Numbered from the stretch's first letter, positions 10,962-58,000 are shown. The stretch: DNA of 64,000 bases from Candidatus Omnitrophota bacterium (GCA_021735655.1 JAIPGM010000009.1:4976-68975); one strand, 5' to 3'. Notes: generated by a model not told the origin, from the sequence alone. Numbers and translations are program-made.

Positions 10962-11212
10962 ACCTCTTACCTCCTTTTTTTACGGTCTATTGAAAAAGGC
11001 CGCATTGTCGTCAATAAACTACAAGTCACATCCACGGATTTTTTAAACGAACGAAATTCCTTTTCTCTTTTTTATATCACACCTATTCCGTGGAGCTTTC
11101 TCACCCCCTAATAATTCCTTTAAAAAATTCTTAAGGAAATCAGTTGTCGGTGACAGCAAACATTCAATGCGTTCGTTTTAAAATAGAGTCGCATAATTCG
11201 AATAATTTTTCT

Positions 11213-13021
11213 TTAATTAAAATTTTGTATTATTGAAGCATCGCTCCAGTTATAATTTGTCTCTAAAAGCAAGATAGTCTGAATCAAAGCTAGATGCGAA
11301 TACCCCTGAGGAAAGTTACCGGTCAAACGGCCGGAACTTATTTCCACATCCTCAGAGAAAAGACTAAATTTATTCAGACAGCGTAAAATATTTTTCAGCA
11401 TTTCCCGACTGGTTTTTTCTTCTCCGATCAAATATAAAGAATTTATCATCCAAAAGGTGCAAACGATAAAGGCGTTTTCCGGCTGACCGAATTCATCCTC
11501 TGAAATGTAACGAAAAGTAAAACCGGACTTGGTTAGTTCTTGATATGTTTTTTCCACAGTCTTAATCATTTTCGGATCGCTCTTTTCCAGAAAGCCGTAA
11601 TGTAGCATCAAAAGATTAGCGGCATCTAACTCCTGAGCACCATAACACATCACAAATGACTCGCGAGCCTCATCCCAACCGTTTTCTAGTATATCTTGCT
11701 TGATCTCCGAAGCTACTTTTAACCATTTTTCGGCATTACTAGGCCTTCCAATAAAACTAGCAATCTTTGCAGCCCTATCCATAGCTACCCAACTCATAAC
11801 CTTCGAATGAACATAATGCCTTAATTCCCCCCTACGCTCCCATATTCCATTGTCCGGCTCTCGCCATTTTTTCAACACATTATTTGCTAAATCCCTAACT
11901 ACTGTCCAAATTTCTTCATCTATCGTAGCCTTTCCTCTGCGATTGGTTATAAGGTACGTATAGATAGCCTCAATGAGCTGGCCATAGATATCATTTTGCA
12001 CCTGTCTATAGGCATCGTTACCGATTCGTACAGGCTTAGAACCCTCATAGCCGGCCAGATGATCTAATATTTTCTCGGTCAATAGCCTTTCGCCATTTAT
12101 TCCGTACATAACCGATATATTCTCGTGTTTCAGTAACCTTCGGTTTAATACAAAATTCATATAGCGCTGCGCCGAACGCATATGCCCGATTCTAGTATAT
12201 AAATCTACAATCATTGAGGCATCCCTTATCCAACAATATCGATAGTCCCAGTTCCGATCCTTGCCAATTATCTCCGGCAGCGATGTTGTCGGCGCTGCAA
12301 TAACAGCCCCCGAACGCTGATAGGTAAGAAGCTTGAGGGTGATAGCTGAACGGATAAGTAAATCTTTATACTTTGAGGGAACTTTTGTTCGATATACCCA
12401 ATCCAGCCAGTAAGTCTTTGTCTTCTCGTATTCAATATATATCTTATCCGTATCGATGTCTTGTAGCTTTTCGTGATAAGAAAAAAGCAAAAAAGAAGTG
12501 CCCTTCAATTCCATGGGCTCTGAGCTCATTATTTTATTATAGTCTAAATTACTATATAAATAAAAACTTGCGTATTCACCTTTCTTGGAGGTAATCTTTA
12601 AATGATTATTTTCTAAGACAATCTCGCAATCACTAATGGCATAATTCGGCTTTGGTTTCAACTCAACGATAATTTTTGGATTACCAGAAATAAGCAAAAT
12701 ATCCCGGTGAATCTCCGGTGGACAGTAATACTCGTCTCTTAAAGTAAAAAAACGAGGCATATAATCCCTTAATTCAAAAACCCCATCTTCTGTAGTAAAA
12801 ATGGTCCGAAGGATCGGCGTGTGAACAACATAATGTTGTTCTACTTTTATTATATTCGCAGCGGATATCTTGAAATATCCTCCTTTATCTTGGTCTAGGA
12901 TTTTAGCAAATACCGATGGCGAATCAAAAAAAGGAAAACACAGCCAATCTATACTGCAATCACTAGAAATCAAAGCCGAGCTTGTGCAATTTCCGATAAT
13001 CGCATAATCGTAGTTTTTCAT
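11213..13021 (-). CDS. Glycoside hydrolase family 15 protein (glucoamylase / GH15-type trehalase-like)
   Basis: N-terminus YDYAIIGNCTSSALISSDCSIDWLCFPFFDSPSVFAKILD is typical of bacterial GH15 N-domains. 602 aa with an (alpha/alpha)6 catalytic region containing WIRDAS. Confidence 0.7.
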   Translation of the reverse strand: MKNYDYAIIGNCTSSALISSDCSIDWLCFPFFDSPSVFAKILDQDKGGYFKISAANIIKVEQHYVVHTPILRTIFTTEDGVFELRDYMPRFFTLRDEYYCPPEIHRDILLISGNPKIIVELKPKPNYAISDCEIVLENNHLKITSKKGEYASFYLYSNLDYNKIMSSEPMELKGTSFLLFSYHEKLQDIDTDKIYIEYEKTKTYWLDWVYRTKVPSKYKDLLIRSAITLKLLTYQRSGAVIAAPTTSLPEIIGKDRNWDYRYCWIRDASMIVDLYTRIGHMRSAQRYMNFVLNRRLLKHENISVMYGINGERLLTEKILDHLAGYEGSKPVRIGNDAYRQVQNDIYGQLIEAIYTYLITNRRGKATIDEEIWTVVRDLANNVLKKWREPDNGIWERRGELRHYVHSKVMSWVAMDRAAKIASFIGRPSNAEKWLKVASEIKQDILENGWDEARESFVMCYGAQELDAANLLMLHYGFLEKSDPKMIKTVEKTYQELTKSGFTFRYISEDEFGQPENAFIVCTFWMINSLYLIGEEKTSREMLKNILRCLNKFSLFSEDVEISSGRLTGNFPQGYSHLALIQTILLLETNYNWSDASIIQNFN

Positions 13022-17950: not shown

Positions 17951-19198
17951 TTATGTCTGTCTCAAAAATAGCTGAAATGACCTAGGTGGTAAATTAAATG
18001 AATAGTTATCAGTTACTATATTGAACTTTTTCTTGTTATTGTCAATGTTTATGAATTTTCCCTGTATTGTCCTGGAATCAACCTCAACCTGGATTGATTC
18101 GGTACACTTATTAAATACCGCGATACCGTCACCTTCCCGGCTAAATATAAGATGGCATTTTCCGGCTGAAACAATCTGCATAGTCTTCCCCGATAGAAGA
18201 TTGTGAAATTTTATCATCTTTAGTAAATCCTTGCTCTTGTAAGCATCTTTCCACTGATCAGAATGCATTCCACCTTCTTTTCCTTTATCAGAATAAACTA
18301 ACGGGACTCCGCCATCTCTGCCAATAATATAAGCATAAGCAATCTTTTCATCTATTCTATTTGGATCGTTAGAATCAAAGATAAGTTGTCTCATCTCCTG
18401 ATTATTAGGGATATCATGAGTTATGGCAAAAGTGAGACTTCGGAAACGGTCCAGCTGATCCGGTTCTTTTAAAGCTTCCAGACTACCCTCAATACTTAAG
18501 GCCTTACGCATTGAATAGAAAAGATTAAAATCATAGACTGAAAAGTCAACTCTCTTTAAAAAATCTTTTAAGAAAATTCTATGTAACTCAGGAATTATCT
18601 CAGCAAAAATATATAAACCTCGGGTTATCTCCTCGGTAAAAACTTTTTTAATATGTTCTATCGACATATGCTTAGCCGCATCAATCCGAAACCCGTCAGC
18701 ACCTATTTTTTTTAAAGCCCTAAGGTATTCTTTTTGGGCAGAAATCACCCTTTGACTGTCAGGATCTAAATCCGACAGGCCGGTATCAGTCTTGTGGCTA
18801 AAATCCTCAGCTGAAAAGATATCCTTTGATAAATCACCATATAGACGATTTCTAGCAAAAACTGGATCTTGCTGATACTGGTCTAGAATATCTTTACCAG
18901 GAAAATCCAAATTATCATCTCTACGATGAGCCATGTGGTTAAAGACTACGTCGATATAGATTTTTAAATTATTTTTTTTTAAAGTTTGAATCAAAGAGGT
19001 TAATTCTTGCAGATTGCCCAAAGGCGAGAATATAACTCGGTAATCTAAAGGTTGATAGCGATAAAACCACTCTTTACCCTGACTAAAGGTAGGCGGCGAA
19101 ATAAGTATGGCGGAATAACCAAAGCTGCTGATCTCTTTTGCTTGTTTCTCTATTTCCTTAAATTTCCAGTTAAAAGCATGTAAAATGACATTACCCAT
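17951..19198 (-). CDS. Alpha-amylase family glycoside hydrolase (GH13)
   Basis: YIDVVFNHMA (region I) and GFRIDAAKHM (region II, catalytic Asp). 415 aa. Confidence 0.8.
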   Translation of the reverse strand: MGNVILHAFNWKFKEIEKQAKEISSFGYSAILISPPTFSQGKEWFYRYQPLDYRVIFSPLGNLQELTSLIQTLKKNNLKIYIDVVFNHMAHRRDDNLDFPGKDILDQYQQDPVFARNRLYGDLSKDIFSAEDFSHKTDTGLSDLDPDSQRVISAQKEYLRALKKIGADGFRIDAAKHMSIEHIKKVFTEEITRGLYIFAEIIPELHRIFLKDFLKRVDFSVYDFNLFYSMRKALSIEGSLEALKEPDQLDRFRSLTFAITHDIPNNQEMRQLIFDSNDPNRIDEKIAYAYIIGRDGGVPLVYSDKGKEGGMHSDQWKDAYKSKDLLKMIKFHNLLSGKTMQIVSAGKCHLIFSREGDGIAVFNKCTESIQVEVDSRTIQGKFINIDNNKKKFNIVTDNYSFNLPPRSFQLFLRQT

Positions 19199-19339: not shown

Positions 19340-19915
19340 CTATTTTCTTTTTAAAAACGAACTATTATGTTTTCGTAAAAATCTTCTATGCGGATTGCCT
19401 AGAGGGAACAGATTATTTTCAGTTACAAACTGCATATCTTCTATGGTATAAAAAGCATTAGGATTGAATTTCTTTATTATTTGTATAACCCTTTTTAAAT
19501 TCTTGCGTTTAACCACACTAAAAATAACTTTAACCGGTCCATCTTTACCTTGAGCATTAATACTGGTGACGCCATAACCCTGCTTACTCATAAACTGCAC
19601 TAAATCTACGGCATCTTTCTTAGTTACTATTTGAATCATAAGATTACCCATTAGAATTCGTCTTTCTATAGAAATGCCCACAAAGTTTCCCATACCAAAC
19701 CCAGCGGCATAAGCGATGTAATGGCTTACACTGCTTAGATTCTTCATTATCTGAGTAATAGCTATAAGCCAAATTAAAACTTCAAAAAAACCCAATACGG
19801 CTGACAAGAATCTTATCCCCCGGGAAACAAATATAATCCTGATAGTGCCGATAGTAACATCGATAATGCGGGCTAGAAAAATCAAAAACGGAATTAAGAT
19901 ATAATTTATTTCCAT
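19340..19915 (-). CDS. UPF0316/DUF2179 family membrane protein
   Basis: LARIIDVTIGTIRIIFVSRG N-terminal membrane region and a C-terminal DUF2179-like soluble domain. Last gene of the KamA operon. Confidence 0.5.
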   Translation of the reverse strand: MEINYILIPFLIFLARIIDVTIGTIRIIFVSRGIRFLSAVLGFFEVLIWLIAITQIMKNLSSVSHYIAYAAGFGMGNFVGISIERRILMGNLMIQIVTKKDAVDLVQFMSKQGYGVTSINAQGKDGPVKVIFSVVKRKNLKRVIQIIKKFNPNAFYTIEDMQFVTENNLFPLGNPHRRFLRKHNSSFLKRK

Positions 19916-19927
19916 AACTTTCTCGAT

Positions 19928-21004
19928 TTAGCGAAAAATCTTTAATATTTTATTACGCCAGTTATTATAAAAATAATGTGCTTTGGGCCCAGCCTGCTTT
20001 AGCAATTCCGGAGAACTACCTAGCCCCCTTATTTCAATCATTGCATCCTTAAGAAAAATTGAATATCTTTTGCTGATTTTTTTATTATTAATAAACCGCT
20101 GGGCAGCATCAACGATGTTATTAGCAGTAAACTGAGCGATCTGATCGGGTACACCACTAGGAGTTTCAGATTGAGAAGTCATATCGCATTGGTCGTTAAC
20201 GTAATCTATGACTAAAAAACGCTTTTTTCCCTGTTTTTCATCAATAGCTATTTCACTTGAAAACCAAGCCATCCGGGTTATCGAAGCAATTTTAGAAACT
20301 ATCTTGGCTAAGGGGAAAAGACTATGCTTATTAAATTCTTCATAACCTATATGTTCATAACGATTAGCCTGATCATCCCACCAGCAAGGTATTATAGTAT
20401 CAAATACATTAAACCCTCGAAACCAAGCACGTTTTCCTTCTATTTGGATAGGAACAATCTTCTCCTGTAGTAAAAAATTATCGCCTCGGTCAAACTTCCG
20501 AGCTTGAGCAATTTCTCGAATTGTGCCCCGAGCATCACGAATAACACCTAATTGACCATAGCCAAGCGCCGGCTTTATTACAAAAGGAACCCCTAGTTTC
20601 TTCTTCTCCTCATCGGGAAGCCTAAAAGTAGTCGGTTCCCAGTTACGAACAACAACTGTATAGGGAGCCATAATCCCGGCATTGATTAACTCATAGTGCA
20701 TTGCTGATTTATCAATTGCACTCTGGGCCCGATCAGGATCATTAATAACCACCCCACCGCTATCTTTTACATCATAGCAAATACGAGTGTAGATATCGCC
20801 TTTTTTATTATAGGTAGCCTCGGTGTCCAGTAAAGCCTTGATTACAAGCTTTCTTTGATCAAGATCCCGAGCCACTTGCCTTACATTATCTTTAGATATC
20901 CAAAGGAAAGAAAGTTTTCTTTGCTTGCAAGCGGCCTGGAGTAAAACAACAAACCTCTCCTTGATATTACCACTCCAAGTCAAACCAAAATCGTATCTTT
21001 TCAT
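19928..21004 (-). CDS. ATP-grasp domain protein (YheC/YheD- or RimK-like ligase)
   Basis: GVPFVIKPALGYGQLGVIRDARG and downstream FLLQEKIVP are consistent with ATP-grasp B and C subdomains. 358 aa. Confidence 0.55.
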   Translation of the reverse strand: MKRYDFGLTWSGNIKERFVVLLQAACKQRKLSFLWISKDNVRQVARDLDQRKLVIKALLDTEATYNKKGDIYTRICYDVKDSGGVVINDPDRAQSAIDKSAMHYELINAGIMAPYTVVVRNWEPTTFRLPDEEKKKLGVPFVIKPALGYGQLGVIRDARGTIREIAQARKFDRGDNFLLQEKIVPIQIEGKRAWFRGFNVFDTIIPCWWDDQANRYEHIGYEEFNKHSLFPLAKIVSKIASITRMAWFSSEIAIDEKQGKKRFLVIDYVNDQCDMTSQSETPSGVPDQIAQFTANNIVDAAQRFINNKKISKRYSIFLKDAMIEIRGLGSSPELLKQAGPKAHYFYNNWRNKILKIFR

Positions 21005-21013
21005 TATCTTATT

Positions 21014-21934
21014 TTAAACAACTGCACTTTCGGCAACTGTTAATGACAGCCTATCAGCATCGATAGTTACCGGAAGTCCCAAAGGCAAGGTAACATGAAG
21101 CCCACCGCGCAAACGCAAATGCCCGGAAGGAAATCCATACAATACCGGGATATCCTGTCCTTTAAATAACTTTTCTATTAGTTTACGTAAATCATGGTCT
21201 TTACCTGAAGAGTCAAGCATTCTGCCTAAAAGTAACCCCTTGATATTTTTAAACTTCCCTGAACGCTTGAGACGAAAAAAATAATTTCTAATGGTATTAA
21301 AGTCTTCGTTGACGTCCTCTAAAAACAAAATGCTGCCGGCAGTCCTTATTCGGTAAGACTTACCTATTGAATCAATGATTAAAGACATATTGCCGCCAAC
21401 CAGCTTACCGGTAGCTACTCCCAGCTTAAAAGCAATCAGCTGGGGGAATTTCAATTCTCCCAAAGGCTTAGTTTCACTAAAAAGCCTTTGCAGATATTCA
21501 AGAGTCAGCTGATGCATTCCTTGATAAATCTCCCCGGAAACTATCGGCCCGTGAAAAACAACCATCTTAGCCAATTTTTGCAAATAGAGTAAGATAATAG
21601 TTATATCACTGTACCCGAGAAAAATTTTGGGATTTTTTCTAATAGTTTTCTCATCTAGGTAGGGTATAATTTCGGCTGAACCGTAACCGGCTTCAGCACA
21701 AAAAATAGCTCTCACTTCTTTGTCGGCAAACATCCGATTTATCTGCATGGCCCGCTGACGATCATGATCGGGCTTAGACCATTTCGGATCAAAAATTACT
21801 CGTTCATATTTAACTTTATAGCCTAGCTCTTTAAGCAGTTCAACGCCGCTTTTAAATTTATCCACATCAAAAGAACTTGCCGGAGCTACTATACCGATAG
21901 TATCACCAAGTTCTAATTTTTGAGGCTTACGCAT
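21014..21934 (-). CDS. LD-carboxypeptidase (peptidase S66, LdcA/MccF family)
   Basis: GDTIGIVAPASSFD N-terminal signature. The C-terminal FPSGHLRLRGG region contains the catalytic His. Confidence 0.7.
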   Translation of the reverse strand: MRKPQKLELGDTIGIVAPASSFDVDKFKSGVELLKELGYKVKYERVIFDPKWSKPDHDRQRAMQINRMFADKEVRAIFCAEAGYGSAEIIPYLDEKTIRKNPKIFLGYSDITIILLYLQKLAKMVVFHGPIVSGEIYQGMHQLTLEYLQRLFSETKPLGELKFPQLIAFKLGVATGKLVGGNMSLIIDSIGKSYRIRTAGSILFLEDVNEDFNTIRNYFFRLKRSGKFKNIKGLLLGRMLDSSGKDHDLRKLIEKLFKGQDIPVLYGFPSGHLRLRGGLHVTLPLGLPVTIDADRLSLTVAESAVV

Positions 21935-21936
21935 TT

Positions 21937-24132
21937 TTACCTATCAAAGCTAAAACCATAACGATTAAATGAATCTTGCAAAATCAACCTTATTAAACTA
22001 TTGTAACTGTTACCTTTCAATTTGTAAAGAATTGGTAAATCACCATACGAAGATGAGAGACCAGGCAAAGGGTTAATATCTATTATCTTAGGTTTGTTCT
22101 GAGTATCAAGGCGAAAATCTATACGCGCCATATCCTTTAATTCTAATTCTTTATATGCCTTTATAGCATAAAATTCAATTATTTTCTGAATATTTTTTAA
22201 AATACTCTCCTGTGGCTCATATTTAACTTTATTTTGCCAATCCTGTTTGATCTCAAGAGAATAGAGAAAGTTCTTGCAAGCCTTATCCCTAGGCACTATT
22301 TTCATCATTCCTAGAATTTGTGGAACTTCATTGCCGTAAACTCCTACGGTAATCTCATCTCTCTCCAAAAACTCTTCTATCAAGGCCGGCTGTTCATATT
22401 TCGAAATTATTTCCTCTACTCTCTTTTTTAAATCATCAAAGTTGCTGACTAAAGAATTAAGAAAAATTCCCTTTGAAGAACCTTCCCAACGCGGCTTTAC
22501 AAGAAATGACCCGTTTCCTCCAAAAATATTTCCTAAATTTTCTAAATCTTTGACATCCTTAATCATAGCCATCTCTGGAACCAGAATATTTGCTGATTTT
22601 AATAATCTATTGGTTAGGTATTTATCTAGAGTGATTCCTAAGGCGACTGGATCTGATCCCGAATAGGGTATATCTAAGCTTTCAAGGATTGCCGGAACTT
22701 GCGATTCACGCCCCCTCTTATCCCCTCTGCCTTCGGCGATATTAAAAACGAAATCCGGCCTTTGACTCAACAATCGTTTTAGAAAATTATCATCCTGCTC
22801 AAAAATAACTACCTTGAAACCGTATTTTTCTATTTCTTTCTTTATGCTTTCAATGGTCTCAATTTCGTCGTATTCCTCATGGTTCTCGCCAGCATCCTTA
22901 TTTTTAAGATTAAATGTTATACCTATTGTATTCACTGAGCGGACTTTTTTAGAATTAGTTATTGCTTCTGGCTGAACAGGAGTATCCTGATAAAAAAATA
23001 TTTCATCTTTATAATTTTTTAATATCATTCCTCGGTCAGAATCTGAAACCAAATAATCAGGACCAAAGGGGATTTTACCTTTCCCGCCTATAGCATCAAT
23101 AACAAAAGTCGGTACACACATACCGCTAGTAAACCCCTGCATTTTTTTGATAATTTCTCTACCTTGCCAAGGTGATGTTCGAAAATGAGATGTCCCGCTA
23201 ACCGGATCACACTGAAATAAATAATATGGCCTAACCCTTATCGCTTGTAGTCTCTGACATAAATCCCTCATCACTTGCAAGTTATCATTCACCCCCTTAA
23301 GCAATACTGACTGATTGCTTACAGGAATACCTATTTTTTGTAGTTTTCTGCAAGCTAAAGCTGCCTGAGGGGTAATTTCTCTAGGGTGGTTGAACTGGAC
23401 ATTAACCCAAACATTGTCATATTTTTTTAGCATCTCACAAAGCCGATCATCTATCCGCCGAGGGAAAACAACCGGAGTACGCGTACCGATACGGACAACC
23501 TCAATATTACTAAAAGAATGAATTTTTGAAAGTATAGCTTCTAGCCGTTCTGTAGGTAAAGTTAAAGGGTCTCCTCCGGAAACTATTATCTCCCTAATTT
23601 TCGGATTCCGGCCCACATAATTTAAGGCTCTATCTATATCTTCTAGGGTTGGTTCATTTATTTTTTTGCTCCATATTCTTTTTCTTGTGCAGTGGCGGCA
23701 ATACATAAAGCAACGGTTAGTTACTAAAAGCAGTGCCCGATCAGGATAGCGGTGTACTAAGCAATCTAAGGGAGAACTCTTTTCCTCAGCTAAAGGATCC
23801 TTGCTTTCAAAGGAACCTTGGCTAAGCTCATCAAAATTAGGTATGCATTGTTTTCCAATCGGATCGCAGTTATCAGAGGTATTTTCAATTAAGGAAAAGT
23901 AGTAAAAAGGAATTTTCAAATGGTAAGCATCAGAAACTTTCTTTAATCGACAAATCTGTTCTTTATCTAAAGGTAGGTATCGAGAAAGGTCTTCAATGTT
24001 GTTAATAAACTCTTTAGGATCATAATACTCTCTCCCAACATCAAGAGTTTTGTTGTGATAATTTACAGTTTCATAACTAGGTCCGCCAGGTTCCTCTTCA
24101 AGGAAAGTTTCAGCATCCAAGTTATTGCTCAT
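21937..24132 (-). CDS. Fusion protein: lysine 2,3-aminomutase-like radical SAM domain (KamA/EpmB family) plus C-terminal D-Ala-D-Ala-ligase-like ATP-grasp domain
   Basis: LLLVTNRCFMYCRHCTRKR (KamA CxxxCxxC context), SGGDPL and PYYLFQCDPVSG (KamA PLP/Zn region). From about residue 420, a Ddl-like fold: central-domain glycine loop at GNGSFLVKPRWEGSSKGI and C-terminal RIDFRLDTQNKPKIIDINPLPGLS. GAGGAGG RBS upstream. Confidence 0.7.
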   Translation of the reverse strand: MSNNLDAETFLEEEPGGPSYETVNYHNKTLDVGREYYDPKEFINNIEDLSRYLPLDKEQICRLKKVSDAYHLKIPFYYFSLIENTSDNCDPIGKQCIPNFDELSQGSFESKDPLAEEKSSPLDCLVHRYPDRALLLVTNRCFMYCRHCTRKRIWSKKINEPTLEDIDRALNYVGRNPKIREIIVSGGDPLTLPTERLEAILSKIHSFSNIEVVRIGTRTPVVFPRRIDDRLCEMLKKYDNVWVNVQFNHPREITPQAALACRKLQKIGIPVSNQSVLLKGVNDNLQVMRDLCQRLQAIRVRPYYLFQCDPVSGTSHFRTSPWQGREIIKKMQGFTSGMCVPTFVIDAIGGKGKIPFGPDYLVSDSDRGMILKNYKDEIFFYQDTPVQPEAITNSKKVRSVNTIGITFNLKNKDAGENHEEYDEIETIESIKKEIEKYGFKVVIFEQDDNFLKRLLSQRPDFVFNIAEGRGDKRGRESQVPAILESLDIPYSGSDPVALGITLDKYLTNRLLKSANILVPEMAMIKDVKDLENLGNIFGGNGSFLVKPRWEGSSKGIFLNSLVSNFDDLKKRVEEIISKYEQPALIEEFLERDEITVGVYGNEVPQILGMMKIVPRDKACKNFLYSLEIKQDWQNKVKYEPQESILKNIQKIIEFYAIKAYKELELKDMARIDFRLDTQNKPKIIDINPLPGLSSSYGDLPILYKLKGNSYNSLIRLILQDSFNRYGFSFDR

Positions 24133-24202
24133 TTTTCCTCCTCACTCAGGTAAAAGTCCACCCGGGAAAATTATAAATTACCCTATGATATCTCCATTCT
24201 CT

Positions 24203-24532
24203 CTAATAATCTTGGTCAGGATAAACTTCTTCGCTGTCATCATCGTATCCTAACTCTTCATCATAAATATACTCATAGCTCAAAGCCCGCAAACCTTCCT
24301 GGCTATTTTCGGCTTTAATTTCCACATTATCTCCAAGCTCAAAATAAGCCTCTTCTACTAACTCTTTAGTAGTTAGCACTTTTTGACCACCAACAGTAAT
24401 ATAGCTACCGTCCTCGGAAATCTGCTCTATCTTACCCTTAAGCAACACTGAATCATCTTCCTGAGCAAAAGCAAAAGTTGTCCCAGCCAAAATCATAACC
24501 AACAACAATGTTAAATATTTTTTCATGACCAT
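24203..24532 (-). CDS. Small secreted protein with acidic C-terminal tail
   Basis: Signal peptide MVMKKYLTLLLVMILAGTTFAFAQ. C-terminus YDEELGYDDDSEEVYPDQDY. Overlaps the LysW-like gene by 10 nt. Confidence 0.45.
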   Translation of the reverse strand: MVMKKYLTLLLVMILAGTTFAFAQEDDSVLLKGKIEQISEDGSYITVGGQKVLTTKELVEEAYFELGDNVEIKAENSQEGLRALSYEYIYDEELGYDDDSEEVYPDQDY

Positions 24533-24750
24533 TCCTCCCTTTCTCCTTTTCCGTTAAAATCTTCTTCCTCCTCACTGTAATCCACGTAATCATCCCAGGT
24601 GCCGATTTCTTCCTCTAGCTCTACCGGATTAAGCTTGGTTAATTTAAGCTCTGCAAAACAACCCTGACAATTAAGGATATCGGCAATCCCCAAACCTTCT
24701 TCAATCTCAACATTTTCTTTACAAACCGGACATTTGGTTTTTTTAACCAT
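24523..24750 (-). CDS. LysW/ArgW-like zinc-ribbon amino-group-carrier-protein homolog with extended acidic tail
   Basis: CPVCKENVEIEEGLGIADILNCQGCFAELKLTKLNPVELEEEIGTW aligns with the CPxCG...E...LGE..xCxxCGAELEV..LDPL.LE....EDW core of LysW. A further 22-aa acidic tail ends in REEWS. GGAGG RBS 5 nt upstream. Confidence 0.55.
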   Translation of the reverse strand: MVKKTKCPVCKENVEIEEGLGIADILNCQGCFAELKLTKLNPVELEEEIGTWDDYVDYSEEEEDFNGKGEREEWS

Positions 24751-24864: not shown

Positions 24865-25203
24865 TTATCTTTTAGTTCGACGAGTTGCTTTTTTATCACT
24901 GGCGAAAGTTTTAGTAGCTCTAAACTGAGAAACAATAAAATCGGTAATTCGACATTGAGGAGAATTAAGATCCTTATTGCGCCGGTAAAAAACCGAGTTG
25001 CCCTTTCTCCGGTCAAAAACTAGCTTAAGCAGGCGCAACCTCATTAGATGCTTGGAAATCGTAGGCTGGCTTACTTTTAAAACAACACATATATCTTTAA
25101 CGGTAAGTTCTTTCTCATCCAGCACATTTATTATCCTTAGACGCGTATCATCGGAGCAGGCTTTAAATATCTGGCGTAATGATTTTAGATTTACTTTTCG
25201 CAT
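24865..25203 (-). CDS. ArsR/SmtB-family transcriptional regulator
   Basis: Start reassigned to MRKVN. Helix-turn-helix LTVKDICVVLKVSQPTISKHLMRLRLLKLV is typical of ArsR/SmtB. Confidence 0.65.
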   Translation of the reverse strand: MRKVNLKSLRQIFKACSDDTRLRIINVLDEKELTVKDICVVLKVSQPTISKHLMRLRLLKLVFDRRKGNSVFYRRNKDLNSPQCRITDFIVSQFRATKTFASDKKATRRTKR

Positions 25204-25221
25204 ATAACATTCCTTTATTGG

Positions 25222-25260
25222 TATATACGTATATATATCATCGGTTAAAAAGGTTGTCAA
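25222..25260 (-). promoter_or_regulatory. Sigma70-like promoter with palindromic operator candidate upstream of the ArsR gene
   Basis: On the minus strand: TTGACA (25260..25255), a 17-nt spacer, then TATATA (25237..25232). The perfect 14-nt palindrome TATATACGTATATA (25222..25235) overlaps the -10 and the predicted +1. Confidence 0.4.
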
Positions 25261-49043: not shown

Positions 49044-52000
49044 TTACAAATCAGTTGCTTTTTTCTTCTTTTTCTCATCATCGTCTTTGCCGCCAAAATA
49101 AGGAGCTAGAGTCCCTTTGAGGTTAATATTCTGCTCAATGAACTCATAAGCACCACTATCTAGGCTAATACCATCAAAGCCTGACTCATCGGTTACAGTT
49201 AACGGATGATAAGCATAAAAATCGGTGCTTCTAACTGGGGTAACTGTACTAAATCTATAGTTAGCCATCAATTCATAGTAAGTCCTAGAATCACGCAAGA
49301 TACTTGCTAAAAATTGAGCACCGTCAAATTCTGGTAAGAAATCTGGCCAAATCTGCTGAGGTCCTAAGTTAGCTGCCGCAGGGCCAAACAAAGGTGAAGC
49401 ACCTCTGGTGTCGGTATCATCATAAAAGATGTATCCCGGAGGTGTAACATTGGTTAAGTCAATATCTGGCGATGGAAAAACCCCGGTAACTGCTGTAACC
49501 CCAGGTCTAACTATACCTTCAATGGCTCCGCTTACCCCTAAGGTACCACTAGGACCAGCTAAGGTAAAACCAGGAGCAGCGCCACCTATCTCTAGGGTAA
49601 GCCCAGCAACTGGCGTAAAACCAGCAGGAACTGCCCATTTTGAAGGATCTAAATCCACTGCCTGAATATTTACATTTAAAGGATTATAAAAATTATCTGC
49701 ATCTACTGGAACTCCTGCGTTACCAATTCCAATTGTGCCTTCTGGTGTTGAGAAATAAGAATAACTTCCAGCAATTACGTTTGGCCCAGAAACCGGGTCA
49801 ACTACGTAATGTGAAAATACATCTATTCCACCATCGGTCGACCAAGGAGTACCAGTTAAGTCCATCGGAAGCGCTCTTGCGAAATCATTTACCGTGTCAG
49901 GACCAGTTGTTACGTCTGGTTGTACTCCGCTAGGATCCCAGCCGGTTCCGGCATAAATCGAGCCAGTGCGGCTTTCTAAATAAACTCCACCGCGCGGTGC
50001 GATAACTGAGTTAACTGTCATGTCCCCACCACTACTAACATTAATTATCCCATTATTAGCAGCAACTGAAAGACCATAAAGAGTGCCTGCGTCCTCAGTC
50101 AAGGTACCTAGGGTAATGCTGTCTAATTCATTAACGTAGATGTTTCCTACATCCCAAGAGTAAGCACTTAAATAATCAACTGCTGTCATAAATGGCGAAG
50201 CACTGGTACCGATATTGTGACGGGCCAATAACCCGGCAAAATCAGCGCTAACCAGCGAAGTAGCATCACCATAGATATTACCTTCCCAAGCATAGATATC
50301 TACTTCTGAGCTGCCTGTACCGCCAACTGAAGCTGAAATAGAGCTATTAGCAAGGGTTACATCGCCGTTACCAGAGATTAAAGTTGCTCTGGCATCGCCG
50401 TCACCTATCATCTCAGCTGAAACAGTACTATCAGTAATATTTACACCCAAATTAGCAAATAATTCAACTAAAGCTGTATCACTACCACTTAAAGCTTGAG
50501 CTAAAATAGTGCTGCCATTAGTTACGTTAATTTCACCATCTTGGGCGGTTACGCCTATTTCGGCATGACCTTCTCCATCTACGTCAGCAGTAATATCACT
50601 ATTGCTAATATTAACATCGTTAAGGGTATTAATATCAACAAGGGCTATTCCTTCATTGCCTACTAAAGCTTCCAAGGTTGAATCGGTAATTGTTGTACTA
50701 TTCCCAGCAACGCTAAGAATAGTTGCATCACCATCATTGCCAACTGAAGCTATTACTGTACTTTCTATTACCTCTATGTTGCCTTTGTCGGCAGCCAAGT
50801 TAACCGTAGCATCGCCATCATTTACTACTGATGCAGCAAGTGTACTCGGATCAATGGTTATATCATTTGCGGCAAGAACGTTAATCGTAGCATCGCCATC
50901 ATTACCAACCAAAGCTTCCAAGGTTGAATCAGTAATTGTAGTATTGTCGCCAGCTTCTAAGTTAACTGTTGCGTCACCGTCATTACCAACCAAAGCATAT
51001 CCATAATCAGTGTAGGCTTCAACATGACCAGTATCGACCTCGATATCATCTTCAGCTTCGATATTGACAGTGGCTTTGATGTCGCTGTCTTGGATTTCGA
51101 CTCTTTCATCAGCTTCTAGATTGATCTCAGATTTAACCGTACTAGAAGAGATCTTGACATCATCAGCTGATACTATATCGACCTGAGCTTCAATTGTCTC
51201 ATCAGTTACTTCGATGTTTTCTCCAGCTTCAATGTCAATTGTTGATTTTACAGTGCTGTCTTGAATTATTAGGTCATTCCACCAGTTGCCTTCTTCAGGA
51301 TCCCAACCACCGACTACTAGGTCGATCTCGGATTTAACGGTGTCAACGTCATCGCCGTTGGTGATCTCAACGTCATCTTCAGCATCGATGTCAACTGTGG
51401 CTAATACATTACTGTTAACAATCTCCATCCTCTCATCAGCCTTAAGCTCGACTTCAGACTCGATATGGCTGTCGATTGACTTTACGTCATCTGAGGACTT
51501 AAGAGTTACTTCAGATTCGATGGTCTCACCAGTTACCTCTATAGTATCCTCAGCAGTTACATCGACTAAGGCCTTAACGGTTGATTCTTCAATTACCAGG
51601 TCGCTCCAGTTGCTGTCATTGTCACCACTCCAGCCGCCGGCTACCAGATCTATTTCAGCTTTGATAGTTTCACCTTCAGCGTTAGTGATTTCAACGTCAT
51701 CTTGAGCCTCAATCTCAATAGTAGCTAAGATATCGCTGCTTTCAATTTGCAGACGGTCTTGAGCTACTAGTTCAAGTTCGGCTTCTATAGTGCTATCAGT
51801 TATCTTTACATCGTCTGAAGACTTAAGAGTTACTTCAGATTCGATGGTCTCATCAGTTACTTCAATCTTGTCATCGGCAGTTACATCTACCAATGATTTA
51901 ACTGTTGAATCTTCAATTACCAGGTCGCTCCAGTTGCTGTCATTATCACCACTCCAGCCGCCGGCTACCAGGTCTATTTCAGCTTTAACAGTAGTCTCAC

Positions 52001-55000
52001 CTTCAGTGATCTCAACGTCATCTTCGGCGTCAATAGCTACAGTTGCTAGAATATCACTGTCAGTTATTTCTAAACGATCATCAGCTACTAGCTCGGTTTC
52101 AGCTTCGATAGTGCTTTCAGAGATCTTCACATCGTCGCCGGAAGCTATATTAACTGTTGATTCAACAGTCTCACCGGTTACTTCGATCTTGTCATCGGCA
52201 GTGATATCGACCAGTGATTTAACCAAACTGCTGTTGATTATTACATCATTCCACCAGTTACTTGCATTGTTTACCACGATATCAATCAATGAGCCGATAG
52301 TTTTACCGCCGTCATTGGTGATCTCAACGTCATCTTCAGCTTCGATATTGACAGTGGCTTTGATGTCGCTGTCTTGGATTTCGACTCTTTCATCAGCGCT
52401 AATCCTAACTTCGGCCTTAACATCACTAGAAGCAATCTTTACGTCCTCATCGGCACTCAAGTTTACTTCTGCAGTTAAGTCTTCACCGTCTAAGTCGATA
52501 TTAGAATCTTCCAATTCGACTTTAGCCAATACTGTACTGCGTGTTACCTCTATATTGTTGTCAGCTTGGGCATTAACCGTTGCTTGGCCTTTTCCTTCTA
52601 AAATCGCCTCGACTGTACTGTCCTCTATTTTAATGTCATGATCAGCTTGTAAGTTAACTCTTGATTCACCATCAAGATAGTTAATCGCTCTAACCAAACT
52701 GTCATTCTTTACTATTAAATCATTACCAGCAGTAATATTTACACTGGCTACGCCGGTGTCAGAAGGTGGATCGATTGCTCTAACAGTGCTGTTATCCACA
52801 GTCACATTGCCTAAATCGGAATGGATACCAATATAGGCGCCACCATCAGATGAAGGGGCAAGTTTAGAAAAAGCGCTTACTAAGCTATCCTTGATCACTA
52901 TATCATTATCGGCAAGTAAGTTAATCCAGGCTGATGCACCAAGGGCCCTGGCGATAACATCACTTCTTAATAAACCGATTCTATTAGCATCGAATCTAAT
53001 TCTTGATAGTCCACCAAGATTTAACTCATTAGTAACTACCCTTGAGTCAATCACCCTAATATCATCATTAGCATCGAAGAAAATCCTGGCTAAGTAATTA
53101 CCGAACGAATTAGCTCTAACTACGCTACCGTCTCTTAGACCGATGTTTTTACCAGCATGAAACTCAACATTTGCCGGACCATTATTAATTGAGGTAGCTG
53201 CAACTCGTGAGTTTGTTAAACCGATATTATCCCCAGCATCTATTGTAATAATTGCTGAGGCTACTCCATCAAGCACCTGGCTCAACAAATCGCTGTTGTT
53301 CAGAAATACATCACTAGCAGCATCAATATCTATCTCAGCATGGCCGGTGTTTGACACTATTGCTTTCACTTCACTGTCATCGATTGTAATATCGCCATTC
53401 TCGGTCGAAATATCTACATAAGCATTACCGTTCAAAACTGATGCTGTAATGTAGCTTGTGTCTATGGCAATGTTATCACCGGCAGATAGATCAACTGAAG
53501 CATCGCCGTCACCCTCAACGGTTGCACTTACAGTGCTGTCAGTGATGGTTAAATCTCCATTCTCAAGTGTACCCGATGTAGGAGGAACAGGTTCGTAAGG
53601 AGTGGTCCAATCACCAGCTACCATTTTAACCGTAGCATTACCGTTTCCGGTTACATTAGAAGAAACTGTACTATTAGCAACACTAATGTTCTCACCTTCA
53701 GCAAAAACCTCTGCATTACCAGTACCGGTTTGAGCTGAAACTGTACTTGAATCGTTTATATTAAGATCAGCGCCATGGAAAGTGCTGTTATACAAATCTG
53801 GATCAGGAAAATTTATCATAATCCCATCTGCATGCAATCCGGCGCTAAGTTCAACATTGGCATCGCCGGTTCCTTGAGTGATTGCGCTAACTGTGCTGTC
53901 AACAACATCGATCCCCTGCCAAGCACGGACAGTTGTTGTAGTATCACCATTGCCAGCTGTGAAAGCTCTGACTATGCTGTTGTTTTGTATTGCGGTATTG
54001 CCAGAAGTTCCAAAAAAGACTGTTGAATCTCCGTCATTACCAACAGTGGCTTCGATTGTACTGTTATCAACTGTTTGAGAGGCAATCGGCCCATGAGTAA
54101 GCAGTGAAACTTCAGCATCACCGTCATTGCCAATAGCCGCTGAAACAGTACTATCTAAAACTTGTAACGGCCCAGCCGATCTTAAAACAACACTAGCGGT
54201 GCCATTTAAAGCTGAGGCCGAAATCAAACTCGGGTCTATAGTCAGAGTTCCGTCGGCAATCATATTTCCAGCAGTTAAATCAACTGAAGCATTGCCAGTG
54301 CCTACGACAGTAGAAGTAATATCACTATCGGTTACAGTAACATTTGTACCAGCATCTACATCAATCGAAGCATCGCCATCAAGGCCAATTCTAGCTAAGA
54401 TATCGCTATCGACTATCGAAACTAGACCATTAGTTGCATTTGCAATAACTGTTGCATCTCCACCGCCGCGGACTCTTGAACGAATTAGGCTATTGTCCCT
54501 AATGGAGATTCCTCTTCCCGGTGTTGTTAAGCTAACTGAAGCATTTCCATTGCCATTAACCCAAGCATCAATGACGCTTGAGTCGTACACACTGATTCCA
54601 TTGTCAGCATCAGCAGTAATCAAAGCATTTCCATCGCCCGCACGAAAAGCCTCAATAGTTCCATCTACAAAAAGAGTTCCACTGTTAACGTCTAAATTAA
54701 TAACTGCATCATCAGCTGGACCAGATCCAGTTGCCAAAACTGAATAAGCATAAGTATCTCCACCGGTAATAATATCGACTACACTCCCTAGAGCCTGGAT
54801 ATCCCAAAGATTTACACCGTCTAACTCGTTAATCCATACATCGCCACCTAAAGCAATCGCTTGCCAGATATCATCTACGTTAGTGTCAATATGATCACCT
54901 GGGACACCAATAGTACCAGCTGCATTCATGTAAAGATTTGGAGCTGTTAAATTAATGCGATTACCATTAGTATCGAGAATATCGCCTGCAGAACTAGTTA

Positions 55001-58000
55001 AACGAATATTATCGCCAGCATTAATAACACCTAAAGAAATATTACCAACTGCATTAATATTAGCATCATGACCAGCCGTAACAGTGCTATTCGATACCAC
55101 AACCTGACCATCAGCGTCAATATTTACATCATAACCTGCGGTCATATCACTTGAACCATTCATGATAGTATCTCGACCGGTGACAACGTTAATACTTCCG
55201 TCAGAAAGTAACGCCGAGCTTTGGCTCATGATTAAATCCTGAGCTGCATAGATATCAACCAATCTGCCTGAGCGGATAGTTGAATTATTGTTCATAAGAA
55301 CATCTCTCTGGGCATCTACGTCAACCCAAGCTGTACCTAAAATATCTGCATTGTTAAACATCCTTAAGTCTGCATCAAGGTTTACATCAACAATTCTGGC
55401 TTCAATTGATGAGTTGTTATGCATACCTAAACCAAAAGCGTCAATGCGTGCATTAGTGGCATTAATTGCTGAAGTATTATACATTCTCATAAGATTAGCC
55501 ACATCAATCGTTACATTTGTACCTGAGATAGATGATCTATTATTCATTGTAAAATTATCTGGCCCTGCTCCATCACCTACGTTTACAAATATATCAGTTC
55601 CGGTAATCGAAGATGTGTTATTCATCTCCATATAATCATCGGCTGAAACATTCACCGTAGCACCATGGATAAGAGCATCGCCGTTCATAGTTAAAGTATC
55701 ATTGCCAGATCCATTGCCAGCTGAAACATTAACTATACCGCGTGTGCCAATAGTGCCTGTATTGTGGACTAGATCGTTATCGGCATGTACATTAACTGTA
55801 CCTGAGCCAAGGCTGATAACATCAGCGTTAACTGTCATATCAGCTCCGGGGCCAGAACCATTAGCTGCTAAACTAACATCACTATTTCCAACAACATCAG
55901 CATTAACTGTCATTGGCGAACCAGTAGTAATATCAATATTTCCACTACCAAAGTTCTTTACGGCATATCCCCATCCTGGCAAATCATTGAGGGCTATAGC
56001 ACCCTTATTGCGAATAGTGATATCACCGCTTGAATCAGGATCGCGTACCTGTGCGCTTAAACTGCCAATTCGAGTTTTCAAATCAATTGAAGTCTTTGCA
56101 TCAAGTATCGCTGTATCAGAAATGATGTTTGGCCCAAACCCACTATTACCTATAATAGAGCCGGTAAAGTTAAATGGATAAACATCGTAGCCCATTGTCA
56201 AAAGAATAACATCAGTTGCAATTAATTGGTTAATCGCTAAGTCAGTTAGCTCATTTAAATTAATAAGCCCGCCAACGCGACCCTCTAAAGTTTCTATCTC
56301 GGTCTCGATTCCATTACCTAAACCAGCGAGACCAACATTACCGTCAACATCAAAGGCAAGTGTGTCAGCTACAATATCAGTGCCGATGTCGCCTGAGCCC
56401 TGCTCCTGCACATCACCTGAACTGATTAGCTTAAATTTCAGCCCCGGCTGATCTAAATTATTAATTGTGATAGTTCCGGCGCTACTTGAACCGATATTGA
56501 TAAAACCAGAAGTAATCAAATTGTAGATTTCATCATTAGAAAGCCTAAACTGACCATAAGCTAAATGTGCGGCTAGAGCAATTGTCTGAGCAGCGCTTGG
56601 GGCAATAGTAATATCTGCCGTGCCGGCATCTACGATACCGTCAACATTAATGTCATCAGCGCTTATGTAGACTTCTCCGTCAGTTGCTCCAGTTGTATCT
56701 ATAACCGAACCATTTTGCAAATCATAGAAACCAGTAGTATCACCATCGCTATCAGCTGAACCGGTAAAGCTTCCACCACCGGTGTAAACATCTCCACCAG
56801 AACTATGGATAATATCACCTACGGCAGCCAAAATTACATCTCCGCCGCCACTATTGATCAAAGCATTAACATAAAGGTTAGGATCATCAACTACGGCTAT
56901 ATCAATAAGTCCGTTGTTAGTAGTAATCGCACCATCAAGCCATAAATCACCAGAGTTAATCAAACTGAAGCTATCTCCGTCAAATCCACCAAAATGCATT
57001 GCACCAGCATGATACATGGCGGCTCTTTGAGCAGTAATAGACATATTGTTTGATCTTAATTCAAGAGCACCATTTGTACCAAAACCGATATCACCACCGG
57101 CATTAAAATCTATGGTATTGGCTGATATATCAAAGTTAGTAATACCACCTGCAACCTTATCAATTCCATCAACAGCATTGCCACTATCATAAGCATCATT
57201 GATATTTCCACCGGCCGTAACTGTTACTGTTCCTAATGCAGGAATAGCTGAACCAGTAAAAGTACCATCAGTTGAAACCCTAGTAACATAAGCATCTTGG
57301 GCAGCAGTTAAGTCAATATCTCCGCCGTCAGTAACTACGCTGCCTGTTTGACTAATAGCCAAATCTCTTCCAGCATCAAGACCAACATTGCCAGCGCTTG
57401 AATCAACAGCAGCATTTACTGACAAATCTCCATCAGCACCAGCTGCAGCTAAACTAATATCGCCCAAGGCTAAAACATCAGAATTTACTGTTAAAGGAGA
57501 AGCTGTAGAAATATCAACTGCTCCACCGATATTATTAACACCACTACCGGCGATAGTTAGATCTCCAGTATTATCAATTTCTATATTTCCTGAAATCGTA
57601 TTAAGAGCTTCTAAATTACTTACCTGTGTTTCTAAAGCATCGCCGGAACCGATTCCTTGAGCTGCAGAAATGCTTAAAGAATCAGCGGTGATATCAGGAG
57701 TAGTGGCACTATTAGCATCTACTACTGCCCCATCACTTGAATTTATATTAACATTTACACCACTCAATCCAGTTGTAACTGTTGTTGAAGTGGCGCCTAA
57801 AGGATCGCTTCCTACCTCATAAGATGCTTTTAACCACGCATCACTTCTGGCAACATTTGAAACCCTGACTTCATCAATCTGGCCTTCAGTTAAATAATTT
57901 GTATCACCCCAACCGCCAATCATAAAGTCGGTAGCAGTATCGACATCGCCTGATGAAGTTGCAAAACCAATATTGTCACCTGCGCCATCTACATACAAAC

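Follow-up and report, generated by a model that had tools for sequence, protein, structure and literature searches.

A KamA-ligase gene block with a LysW homolog in Omnitrophota, a possible version of a widespread beta-lysine ligase cassette

Introduction

What is made by a run of genes in which a lysine 2,3-aminomutase domain (KamA), fused to an ATP-grasp ligase, lies close to a small protein resembling the amino-group carrier LysW? The run belongs to a Candidatus Omnitrophota bacterium and occupies part of a 64,000-nucleotide (nt) stretch of its genome (GCA_021735655.1 JAIPGM010000009.1:4976-68975), the whole of which we refer to as the window. A first-pass annotation had read six of the genes as holding the full logic of an amino-group carrier protein (AmCP) pathway: a LysW-like carrier, two ATP-grasp ligases, an aminomutase producing beta-lysine, and a peptidase that could release the product. 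Our analysis does not support a canonical pathway of this kind. The explanation that we favour, tentatively, is that the block extending from an ArsR-family regulator gene to the gene for a divergent ligase, which we call G358, may be an Omnitrophota-specific version of a widespread beta-lysine ligase cassette, in which beta-lysine synthesis would be combined with ATP-dependent ligation. The enzymes come from known families; their combination is undescribed in the literature that we searched. The features are as follows, in the order of transcription.

24865..25260, minus strand: winged-helix protein of the ArsR/SmtB family, likely the regulator of the block (PF01022 HTH_5, 6.9e-12; NF033788, 73.6 bits against a cutoff of 55)
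24523..24750, minus strand: LysW-homologous zinc ribbon (CxxC...CxxC) of 75 amino acids, with a 30-residue acidic tail ending ...EREEWS (PF21344, Zn_ribbon_LysW, 28.6 bits against a cutoff of 27)
24203..24526, minus strand: small secreted protein with a signal peptide, an OB-like core and an acidic tail ending ...PDQDY (public gene call, 107 amino acids)
22918..24015, minus strand: predicted lysine 2,3-aminomutase domain of the KamA/AblA type, using radical S-adenosylmethionine (SAM) and pyridoxal phosphate (PLP), in a 731-residue fusion protein (Radical_SAM and LAM_C; TIGR03820, TIGR00238; fusion reading frame 21937-24132)
21958..22863, minus strand: G1, a Ddl-type ATP-grasp ligase domain, C-terminal in the 731-residue fusion (PF07478, Dala_Dala_lig_C, 4.8e-28, 98.5 bits against a cutoff of 24)
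21014..21934, minus strand: basic S66 serine peptidase of the LD-carboxypeptidase/MccF family, 306 amino acids (PF02016, 1.2e-32, 113 bits; PF17676, 7.8e-25, 88.3 bits)
19928..21004, minus strand: G358, a basic, divergent ATP-grasp ligase of 358 amino acids from the RimK/LysX/ArgX structural clade (by its closest solved folds)
19340..19915, minus strand: membrane protein with DUF5698/DUF2179 domains (UPF0316), loosely associated and outside the conserved block (PF18955, 1.5e-22; PF10035, 4.7e-13; NF003191, 234 bits)

The gene block is conserved as a unit

The six co-directional open reading frames (ORFs) of the first-pass annotation all lie on the minus strand where it had placed them. Gaps of 2 nt separate the fusion from the S66 gene (21937/21934), 9 nt the S66 gene from G358, and 12 nt G358 from the DUF2179 gene; the 70-nt gap between the secreted-protein gene (which ends at 24203) and the start of the fusion (24132) is also there. 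The stop codon of the LysW-like gene and the ATG of the secreted-protein gene overlap by 4 nt (ATGA) if the latter gene begins at 24526, where the public gene call places its start. It is preceded by a GGGAGG ribosome-binding site, and the two genes are predicted to be translationally coupled. On the minus strand, no terminator-like sites beyond shuffle expectation were found between the block genes, and promoter-like sites inside the block likewise do not exceed that expectation. Neither the 70-nt gap nor any other part of the 64 kb gave an Rfam match to a riboswitch or other RNA, or a tRNA.

The first-pass annotation held that lack of synteny in relatives would point to chance adjacency. Synteny is present: in a relative whose fusion protein is 67% identical (L172/L173), the genes for the ArsR regulator, the LysW-like protein, the secreted protein, the fusion, the S66 peptidase, and G358 are all kept amid entirely different flanks. 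Because the block is retained in this way, and because a LysW-like gene stands directly before KamA in at least 14 loci, the adjacency of these genes exceeds chance. The same comparison defines the unit as running from ArsR to G358. The extent first proposed therefore needs amending at both ends. The six genes do cluster, but the ArsR gene also belongs to the block, and homologs of this regulator head the cluster in L002, L006, L018, L071, L162, and L172. The DUF2179 gene, on the other hand, is absent from L172/L173, although it is present near two KamA clusters (L071 and L090) and near an S66-G358 pair (L170). The part in product export that the first-pass annotation had suggested for its protein is not supported.

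The aminomutase domain is of the lysine type

The aminomutase domain of the fusion aligns with lysine 2,3-aminomutase of Clostridium subterminale (2a5h_A) at E = 1.2e-105, and a LAM_C domain (PF12544) is detected at 2.3e-15. It keeps the CxxxCxxC motif (as CFMYCRHC) and the equivalents of the PLP lysine, Lys337, and of Asp293 and Asp330; all three positions are invariant among 104 cassette KamA proteins. We take the two aspartates to be the residues that hold the epsilon-ammonium group of lysine, following the literature on 2A5H, and glutamate 2,3-aminomutase presumably has Lys and Asn in their places. The only aminomutase cutoff passed in searches with hidden Markov models (HMMs) is that of the KamA family (TIGR00238, 294.7 bits against 199.2). 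Among the equivalog models, AblA (TIGR03820) scores best with 425.6 bits, although its cutoff of 525.4 is missed, followed by the models for glutamate (379.8 bits) and arginine (343.9 bits) aminomutases and for EpmB (236.3 bits). Given this ranking and the retained lysine-binding residues, the assignment of the domain to the lysine type is well supported, and it would produce beta-lysine from free L-lysine, as the first-pass annotation had supposed.

Three other identities were considered and rejected. Glutamate 2,3-aminomutase, which the first-pass annotation had named along with EpmB as an identity that would undo its reading, is out on its score (against a cutoff of 650) and on the retained aspartate pair. 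Arginine aminomutase is out on the HMM ranking and the same pair. EpmB likewise scores far below its cutoff of 369.3, the aspartate pair again speaks against it, and the block contains no EpmA-like gene.

G1 and KamA form the core of a widespread cassette

The ligase domain fused to the aminomutase, G1, resembles D-alanine--D-alanine ligases but falls far below the cutoffs of the Ddl family models (NF002378, 137.4 bits against 243; TIGR01205, 125.8 against 245.65). Among solved structures, Ddl chains come closest in sequence (about 1e-16), and the matches at E <= 1e-10 do not include PylC. The ATP-grasp lysine and the metal ligands (D..R...[DE]xN) are invariant in our alignment of the domain (A1).

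KamA is fused with G1 or adjoins it in most of about 165 loci. The neighbourhood search for the fusion that the first-pass annotation had suggested recovered homologs across bacteria and archaea, including Omnitrophota, Nitrospirota, Methanocellales, Woesearchaeota, Thermoplasmatota, and other groups; in Eubacteriales-type proteins, the domain order is reversed (G1::KamA). One such reversed protein (L005:1024-5196) is flanked by an S51 peptidase of the cyanophycinase/PepE type and by a protein with a faint AMP-binding match, and in one database protein (P0068) an S51 domain has apparently been added to the fusion itself.

A scan for the ligase domain, with one genome per species, gave at least 595 matches (595 of the 600 candidate stretches encode relatives). 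Eighty loci were kept from it, representing Omnitrophota, Synergistota, Dehalococcoidia, Planctomycetota, Acidobacteriota, Thermodesulfobacteriota, and others. Part of the cassette is present in a metagenome-assembled genome of Acetomicrobium (L014), a culturable genus. The sole neighbourhood conserved among these 80 loci consists of KamA, G1, a paralogous Ddl-type ligase (G2), and a GNAT acetyltransferase. The cassette GNATs have no match to AblB, only weak ones to RimI, AAC(6'), and SpeG. In 11 loci from Omnitrophota and Dehalococcoidia, the cassette is followed by a GNAT fused to a histone-deacetylase-type protein, which suggests a cycle of acetylation and deacetylation acting on the product. 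An example is the GNAT::PF00850 fusion of about 578 amino acids at L018:12393-14129, with homologs in 10 other loci (e.g., L024, L028, and L031). One lineage of Omnitrophota encodes a PIG-L deacetylase, apparently with a signal peptide, between G1 and G2 (L094:8962-10269; also L093, L098, and L101); there, the LysW-like gene is present and GNAT is absent. A recurrent protein of about 315-328 amino acids with no Pfam match also occurs in or beside Omnitrophota KamA clusters (L071:11948-12895 and L091:3075-4061).

Thus, this widespread pathway has KamA and G1 as its invariant core. No name for it was found among the curated families, and most of the fetched loci contain no LysW-like gene. A full-text literature search found no paper linking KamA to ATP-grasp ligases or to LysW, and none describing the cassette.

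The small zinc ribbon protein is a LysW homolog without the LysW attachment end

The 75-residue protein is a true LysW homolog, as the first-pass annotation had proposed. It passes the Pfam family cutoff, and a profile built from 28 members of its family (A4) matches solved LysW chains (5k2m_E, 1.7e-10; 3wwl_A, 5.4e-10; 3vpb_E, 0.0029), with the Thermococcus (1.7e-10) and Thermus (5.4e-10) proteins matched over their full length. The LysW equivalog models, in contrast, are missed by a wide margin: TIGR01206, the model named in the first-pass annotation, gives 20.6 bits against 53.2, and NF041070 gives 19.5 against 75. The protein has a net charge of -13 and lacks the EDWGE end with its terminal glutamate, which we take to be the site of attachment in LysW.

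A word-indexed search with the 75-residue protein gave only 3 proteins, whereas exhaustive phmmer searches yielded 77 LysW-like representatives. The tails of LysW-like proteins vary in length and in the terminal residue: serine in the window (...EEWS), glutamate in L172, the closest syntenic relative (...DDEEEE), phenylalanine in many (...EEF), and elsewhere aspartate, arginine, or asparagine. Of the 77 representatives, 32 end in F, Y, or W, 10 in E, and a single one, a true LysW (P0319), in DWGE. The aromatic ends are far above compositional expectation and are reminiscent of EEY/EEF docking tails. This family (P0244-P0320) is broader than LysW, and many of its members have two or three tandem zinc ribbons.

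The first-pass annotation had stressed the physical coupling of KamA and LysW. Within the Omnitrophota the coupling does recur: the LysW-like gene is directly upstream of KamA in the 14 or more Omnitrophota-type loci mentioned above, and it adjoins KamA in 14 of the 15 LysW-like-carrying loci that we examined. Outside this phylum, no LysW-like gene was found in any fetched locus with KamA and G1, and it is also missing from about 10 Omnitrophota-type loci for which sufficient upstream sequence is available. GNAT occurs in 3 of 10 LysW-positive loci and in 10 of 10 LysW-negative Omnitrophota-type loci, counts that are not phylogenetically independent and that have exceptions. In L071, a different Cys-rich ORF of 56 amino acids with an acidic tail (...FHNYY; L071:8597-8767) takes the LysW-like position, directly upstream of KamA-G1-G358.

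Homologs of the secreted protein are found downstream of the LysW-like gene in at least 12 loci. The protein itself has weak matches, below the cutoffs, to DUF5666 (22.8 bits) and ExtJ (28.9 bits).

S66 and G358 are neighbours with and without KamA

Both ATP-grasps of the first-pass annotation are present, but they belong to different clades: G1 is of the Ddl type, and G358 is of the RimK/LysX type. G358 has no Pfam match, and the family HMMs are out of reach (LysX_arch, 22.3 bits against 275.6; rimK_fam, 19.6 against 143.4); its closest solved folds are ArgX, RimK, and LysX. The S66 assignment stands, with both the N-terminal and the C-terminal Peptidase_S66 domains detected. Solved S66 relatives are at roughly equal distance (MccF, 104 bits; LdcA, 84 and 69 bits), and the LdcA equivalog model NF008424 gives 98.1 bits against a cutoff of 378. 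The candidate catalytic residues S109 (in GYSD), E206, and H272 are invariant in an alignment of six G358-linked S66 orthologs, and such orthologs share 54-61% identity across three phyla. Both proteins are strongly basic (net charge +15 for G358 and +12 for S66).

The G358 family comprises more than 1000 proteins, mostly from Omnitrophota. In four of six independent contexts, G358 follows an orthologous S66 gene with neither KamA nor a LysW-like gene within 6-7 kb. These stand-alone pairs (L168:6033-8026, L169:1545-3504, L170:5042-7086, and L171:4305-6268) come from Omnitrophota, Elusimicrobiota, and Margulisiibacteriota, and no LysW-like or other small acidic-tail gene lies beside any of them. 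One stand-alone G358 adjoins a LysM/Amidase_2 gene, and downstream of the L169 pair come genes for a deoxyhypusine-synthase-like protein and for an Orn/DAP/Arg decarboxylase.

G358 is also found next to KamA-G1, with three different gene orders among the lineages concerned: that of the window, L053, L054, L071, and L002. In the first four of these, where it occurs with or without S66, G2 and GNAT are absent; in L002, G358 is added to G2 and GNAT.

Other features of the window

Only one window ORF of 250 or more amino acids lies off the minus strand, and every 2-kb bin has a negative GC skew. A 3657-residue ORF (49044-60017, minus strand), in which only DUF2341 and Laminin_G_3 are recognisable (at about residues 467-728), probably encodes a giant surface protein. 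A few kilobases downstream of the block lies a CorA gene. Sugar and trehalose genes are found near the cluster: a GH15/TREH_N enzyme and an alpha-amylase-family gene, at about 11200-13020 and 17951-19198. Close to the cluster of L002 are TreT and DUF5752 (L002:13028-14883), and a link to osmotic adaptation is possible.

Discussion

How might the block work? In the reading that we favour, the radical-SAM/PLP domain would convert free L-lysine to beta-lysine, a step that is well supported by sequence. The fused G1 would then join beta-lysine to a second substrate through an ATP-dependent amide bond, as the fusion and adjacency of the two domains suggest. The replacement of genes seen among loci suggests in turn that the basic G358 and S66 take the place of the second Ddl-type ligase and the GNAT (sometimes with a deacetylase) that most lineages have. 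As a ligase/hydrolase pair, they would extend and trim a carboxyl terminus, either on the beta-lysine product or on an acidic acceptor. The LysW homolog would be an accessory limited to part of the Omnitrophota and not a canonical amino-group carrier that passes a protected intermediate along a series of enzymes; most likely, its acidic tail would dock onto the basic ligase or ligases or be modified by them. The pathway would end in an (iso)peptide that contains beta-lysine or in an acidic tail that has been beta-lysylated. A role of this product as a cationic or compatible solute is plausible, but it is a guess and not a finding.

Several observations weigh against this proposal. We infer everything after the first step from gene context. 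The S66 and G358 proteins of the window are 54-68% identical to those of the stand-alone pairs, and because of this similarity they may do the same KamA-independent job in both settings. Most loci that have both a LysW-like gene and KamA carry G2 and not G358 or S66; therefore, a specific partnership between G358 and the LysW homolog is only tentative. In L007, just 3 nt separate a LysW-like gene (L007:17717-19066; PF21344, 39.4 bits) from the gene downstream of it, which encodes a CorA magnesium transporter, and the KamA cassette of that contig is 7 kb away. The model also leaves unexplained why a secreted protein should be coupled to a cytoplasmic LysW homolog.

The claim that the block holds the full logic of an AmCP pathway fails on several grounds. 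Pfam and NCBIfam scans of every block ORF revealed no kinase, reductase, or aminotransferase (of the LysZ, LysY, or LysJ type) and no release enzyme of the LysK type. The canonical pathway is unsupported because neither the tail motif nor the equivalog scores of LysW are attained, no enzymes that require amine protection are present, the aminomutase needs a free alpha-amino group, and the carrier gene tracks no ligase except G1. A new amino-group-carrier system is a separate matter. Here, beta-lysine or the ligation product would be tethered through its amino group to a carboxylate on the tail of the LysW homolog by an ATP-grasp (G358, or the basic G1 or G2 elsewhere), processed while tethered, and released by S66 or a PIG-L hydrolase. 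The long acidic tail, often with an aromatic end, would make a protein tether that replaces, in part of the Omnitrophota, the N-acetyl protection (GNAT plus deacetylase) of the cassette found across phyla; an exchange of acetyl for LysW is known between classical arginine biosynthesis and the Thermus and Sulfolobus pathways. We consider such a system doubtful. It would accord with the genuine LysW homology of the small protein, its position directly before KamA, the ArgX/LysX/RimK fold of G358, the basic charges of G358 and S66 beside the acidic LysW homolog, the scarcity of GNAT in LysW-positive loci, and the second Cys-rich, acidic-tailed protein at the same position by the G358-type cluster of L071. 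G1 is moreover basic in 10 of 11 LysW-positive loci but has a net charge with a median of -9 outside the phylum, and G2 reaches +14 to +19 in the LysW-positive, GNAT-negative lineage; these contrasts in the charge of G1, G2, and KamA are suggestive, confounded by phylogeny and proteome composition, and not relied upon here. Against tethering stand the unconserved C-terminal residue with no EDWGE, the LysW equivalog scores far below their cutoffs, and the lack in the block of a kinase, reductase, or aminotransferase, hence of any step that obviously requires a protected amine. Lysine 2,3-aminomutase requires a free alpha-amino group to form the PLP aldimine, so a carrier could act only after the first step. 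G1 is the sole ligase type common to all LysW-positive loci, three of these loci retain GNAT, Gemmatales loci without GNAT are also without LysW, and the locus counts, as said, are not phylogenetically independent.

The block could also be a mosaic operon, with co-transcription but no shared pathway. Only KamA::G1 would then act on beta-lysine, S66-G358 would be a housekeeping module (e.g., for trimming and re-ligating cell-wall or other peptides), and the genes for ArsR, the LysW-like protein, and the secreted protein would form a separate module, perhaps concerned with cations or metals. The tight stand-alone S66-G358 pairs of three phyla and their similarity to the window proteins are what one would expect from such a mosaic, as is the size of the G358 family, which far exceeds the Omnitrophota KamA::G1 set. 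The neighbourhood of the LysW-like gene and CorA in L007, a head regulator from a family of metalloregulators, and the weak resemblance of the secreted protein to ExtJ and DUF5666 point the same way. We nevertheless find this explanation just as doubtful: G358 lies no more than three genes from KamA-G1 in at least five lineages and in three gene orders, with loss of G2 and GNAT in four, a proximity far above expectation for a genome of about 1.5-2 Mb (a rough estimate, not a computed statistic). In addition, the genes are separated by gaps of 2-12 nt, the whole block moves together between genomic contexts, and nearly all loci that carry the LysW-like gene have it next to KamA. Two further readings are unlikely, the second even more so than the first. 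The Ddl-like nature of G1, the membership of murein tetrapeptide LD-carboxypeptidases in S66, and the LysM/Amidase_2 neighbour of one stand-alone G358 would fit a role in the cell wall: peptidoglycan precursors would receive beta-lysine or a beta-lysyl dipeptide from the two kinds of ligase (Ddl-type and RimK-type), and S66 would be a true LD-carboxypeptidase in recycling. Yet Dehalococcoidia and archaea (Methanocellales, Woesearchaeota, and Thermoplasmatota), which, to our knowledge, have no murein, commonly carry the KamA-G1-G2-GNAT cassette; the Ddl and LdcA equivalog cutoffs are widely missed, and the block has no mur genes. Least probable is one of the known uses of beta-lysine, either as the osmolyte N-epsilon-acetyl-beta-lysine (AblA/AblB) or in the beta-lysylation of elongation factor P (EpmB/EpmA). 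AblA is the top-scoring aminomutase model, and the trehalose-related genes nearby, GH15/TREH_N in the window and TreT in L002, hint at an osmotic theme; on the other side, a GNAT is missing from the window, those found in the common cassette do not match AblB, the EpmB score is well short of its cutoff with no EpmA-like gene in the block, and we know of no ATP-grasp ligase used by either pathway.

A version of the beta-lysine ligase cassette, possible rather than established, remains our preferred explanation of the block. A cassette coupling beta-lysine synthesis to two ATP-grasp ligases, with at least 595 species-representative matches in more than 10 bacterial and archaeal lineages, small-genome groups included, would, if confirmed, yield a new and widespread beta-lysine metabolite or modification. 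Carriers of the LysW type are known to us only from the biosynthesis of lysine and arginine and from a small number of pathways in Streptomyces; the roles of such proteins would be broadened by a LysW homolog that belongs to an aminomutase-ligase operon, whether as a carrier or as a modified acceptor. If it were a carrier, this would be a second, independent exchange of acetyl for LysW, linked to radical-SAM beta-amino-acid chemistry. S66-G358 would likewise, if confirmed, be a conserved ligase/peptidase pair of Omnitrophota, Elusimicrobiota, and Margulisiibacteriota.

Comparison with known systems

The closest parallel is the LysW/LysX/LysK system of lysine and arginine biosynthesis in Thermus, Sulfolobus, and Thermococcus, and the AmCP pathways of Streptomyces. 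The block shares with it a homologous zinc ribbon with an acidic tail, a neighbouring ATP-grasp (G358) that has ArgX and LysX among its closest solved folds, an operon-encoded hydrolase that might serve for release, and the arrangement of an acidic carrier beside basic enzymes. However, the window homolog lacks EDWGE and the terminal glutamate, has a tail two to three times longer, and does not reach the equivalog HMMs; no equivalents of LysZ, LysY, or LysJ are encoded in the block. LysK is an M20 metallopeptidase and the hydrolase of the block an S66 serine peptidase, and the partner pathway begins with a radical-SAM aminomutase and is usually carrier-free.

With AblA/AblB and clostridial KamA, the block has in common the aminomutase family, its cofactor motifs, and the lysine-binding residues, and the common cassette also has a GNAT. 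It differs from them in that the aminomutase is fused or adjacent to Ddl-type ATP-grasps, the GNAT is not AblB-like and is missing from the window, and the AblA cutoff is not reached. The pair of RimK and ribosomal protein S6 offers another comparison, as S6 ends in glutamates (RimK adds C-terminal polyglutamate) and the block, too, has a small acidic-tailed protein in the operon, whose tail in L172 ends in ...DDEEEE. The window tail ends in ...EEWS, however, the rimK HMM score of G358 is far under the cutoff, and G358 is usually paired with S66, with no acidic-tail gene near the stand-alone loci. As an analogy only, PylB and PylC provide a radical-SAM lysine mutase followed by an ATP-grasp of the Ddl-like class that joins the product to another amine; PylB is outside the KamA family, G1 is nearest to Ddl chains, and the block has no PylD.

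MccF and LdcA, finally, are matched by the presence of both S66 domains, by an LdcA-like length of 306 amino acids, and by the invariance of the candidate catalytic residues S109, E206, and H272 among G358-linked orthologs. The window S66 does not reach the LdcA equivalog, is about equally distant from MccF and LdcA, and falls into an orthologous group of its own, defined by its pairing with G358.

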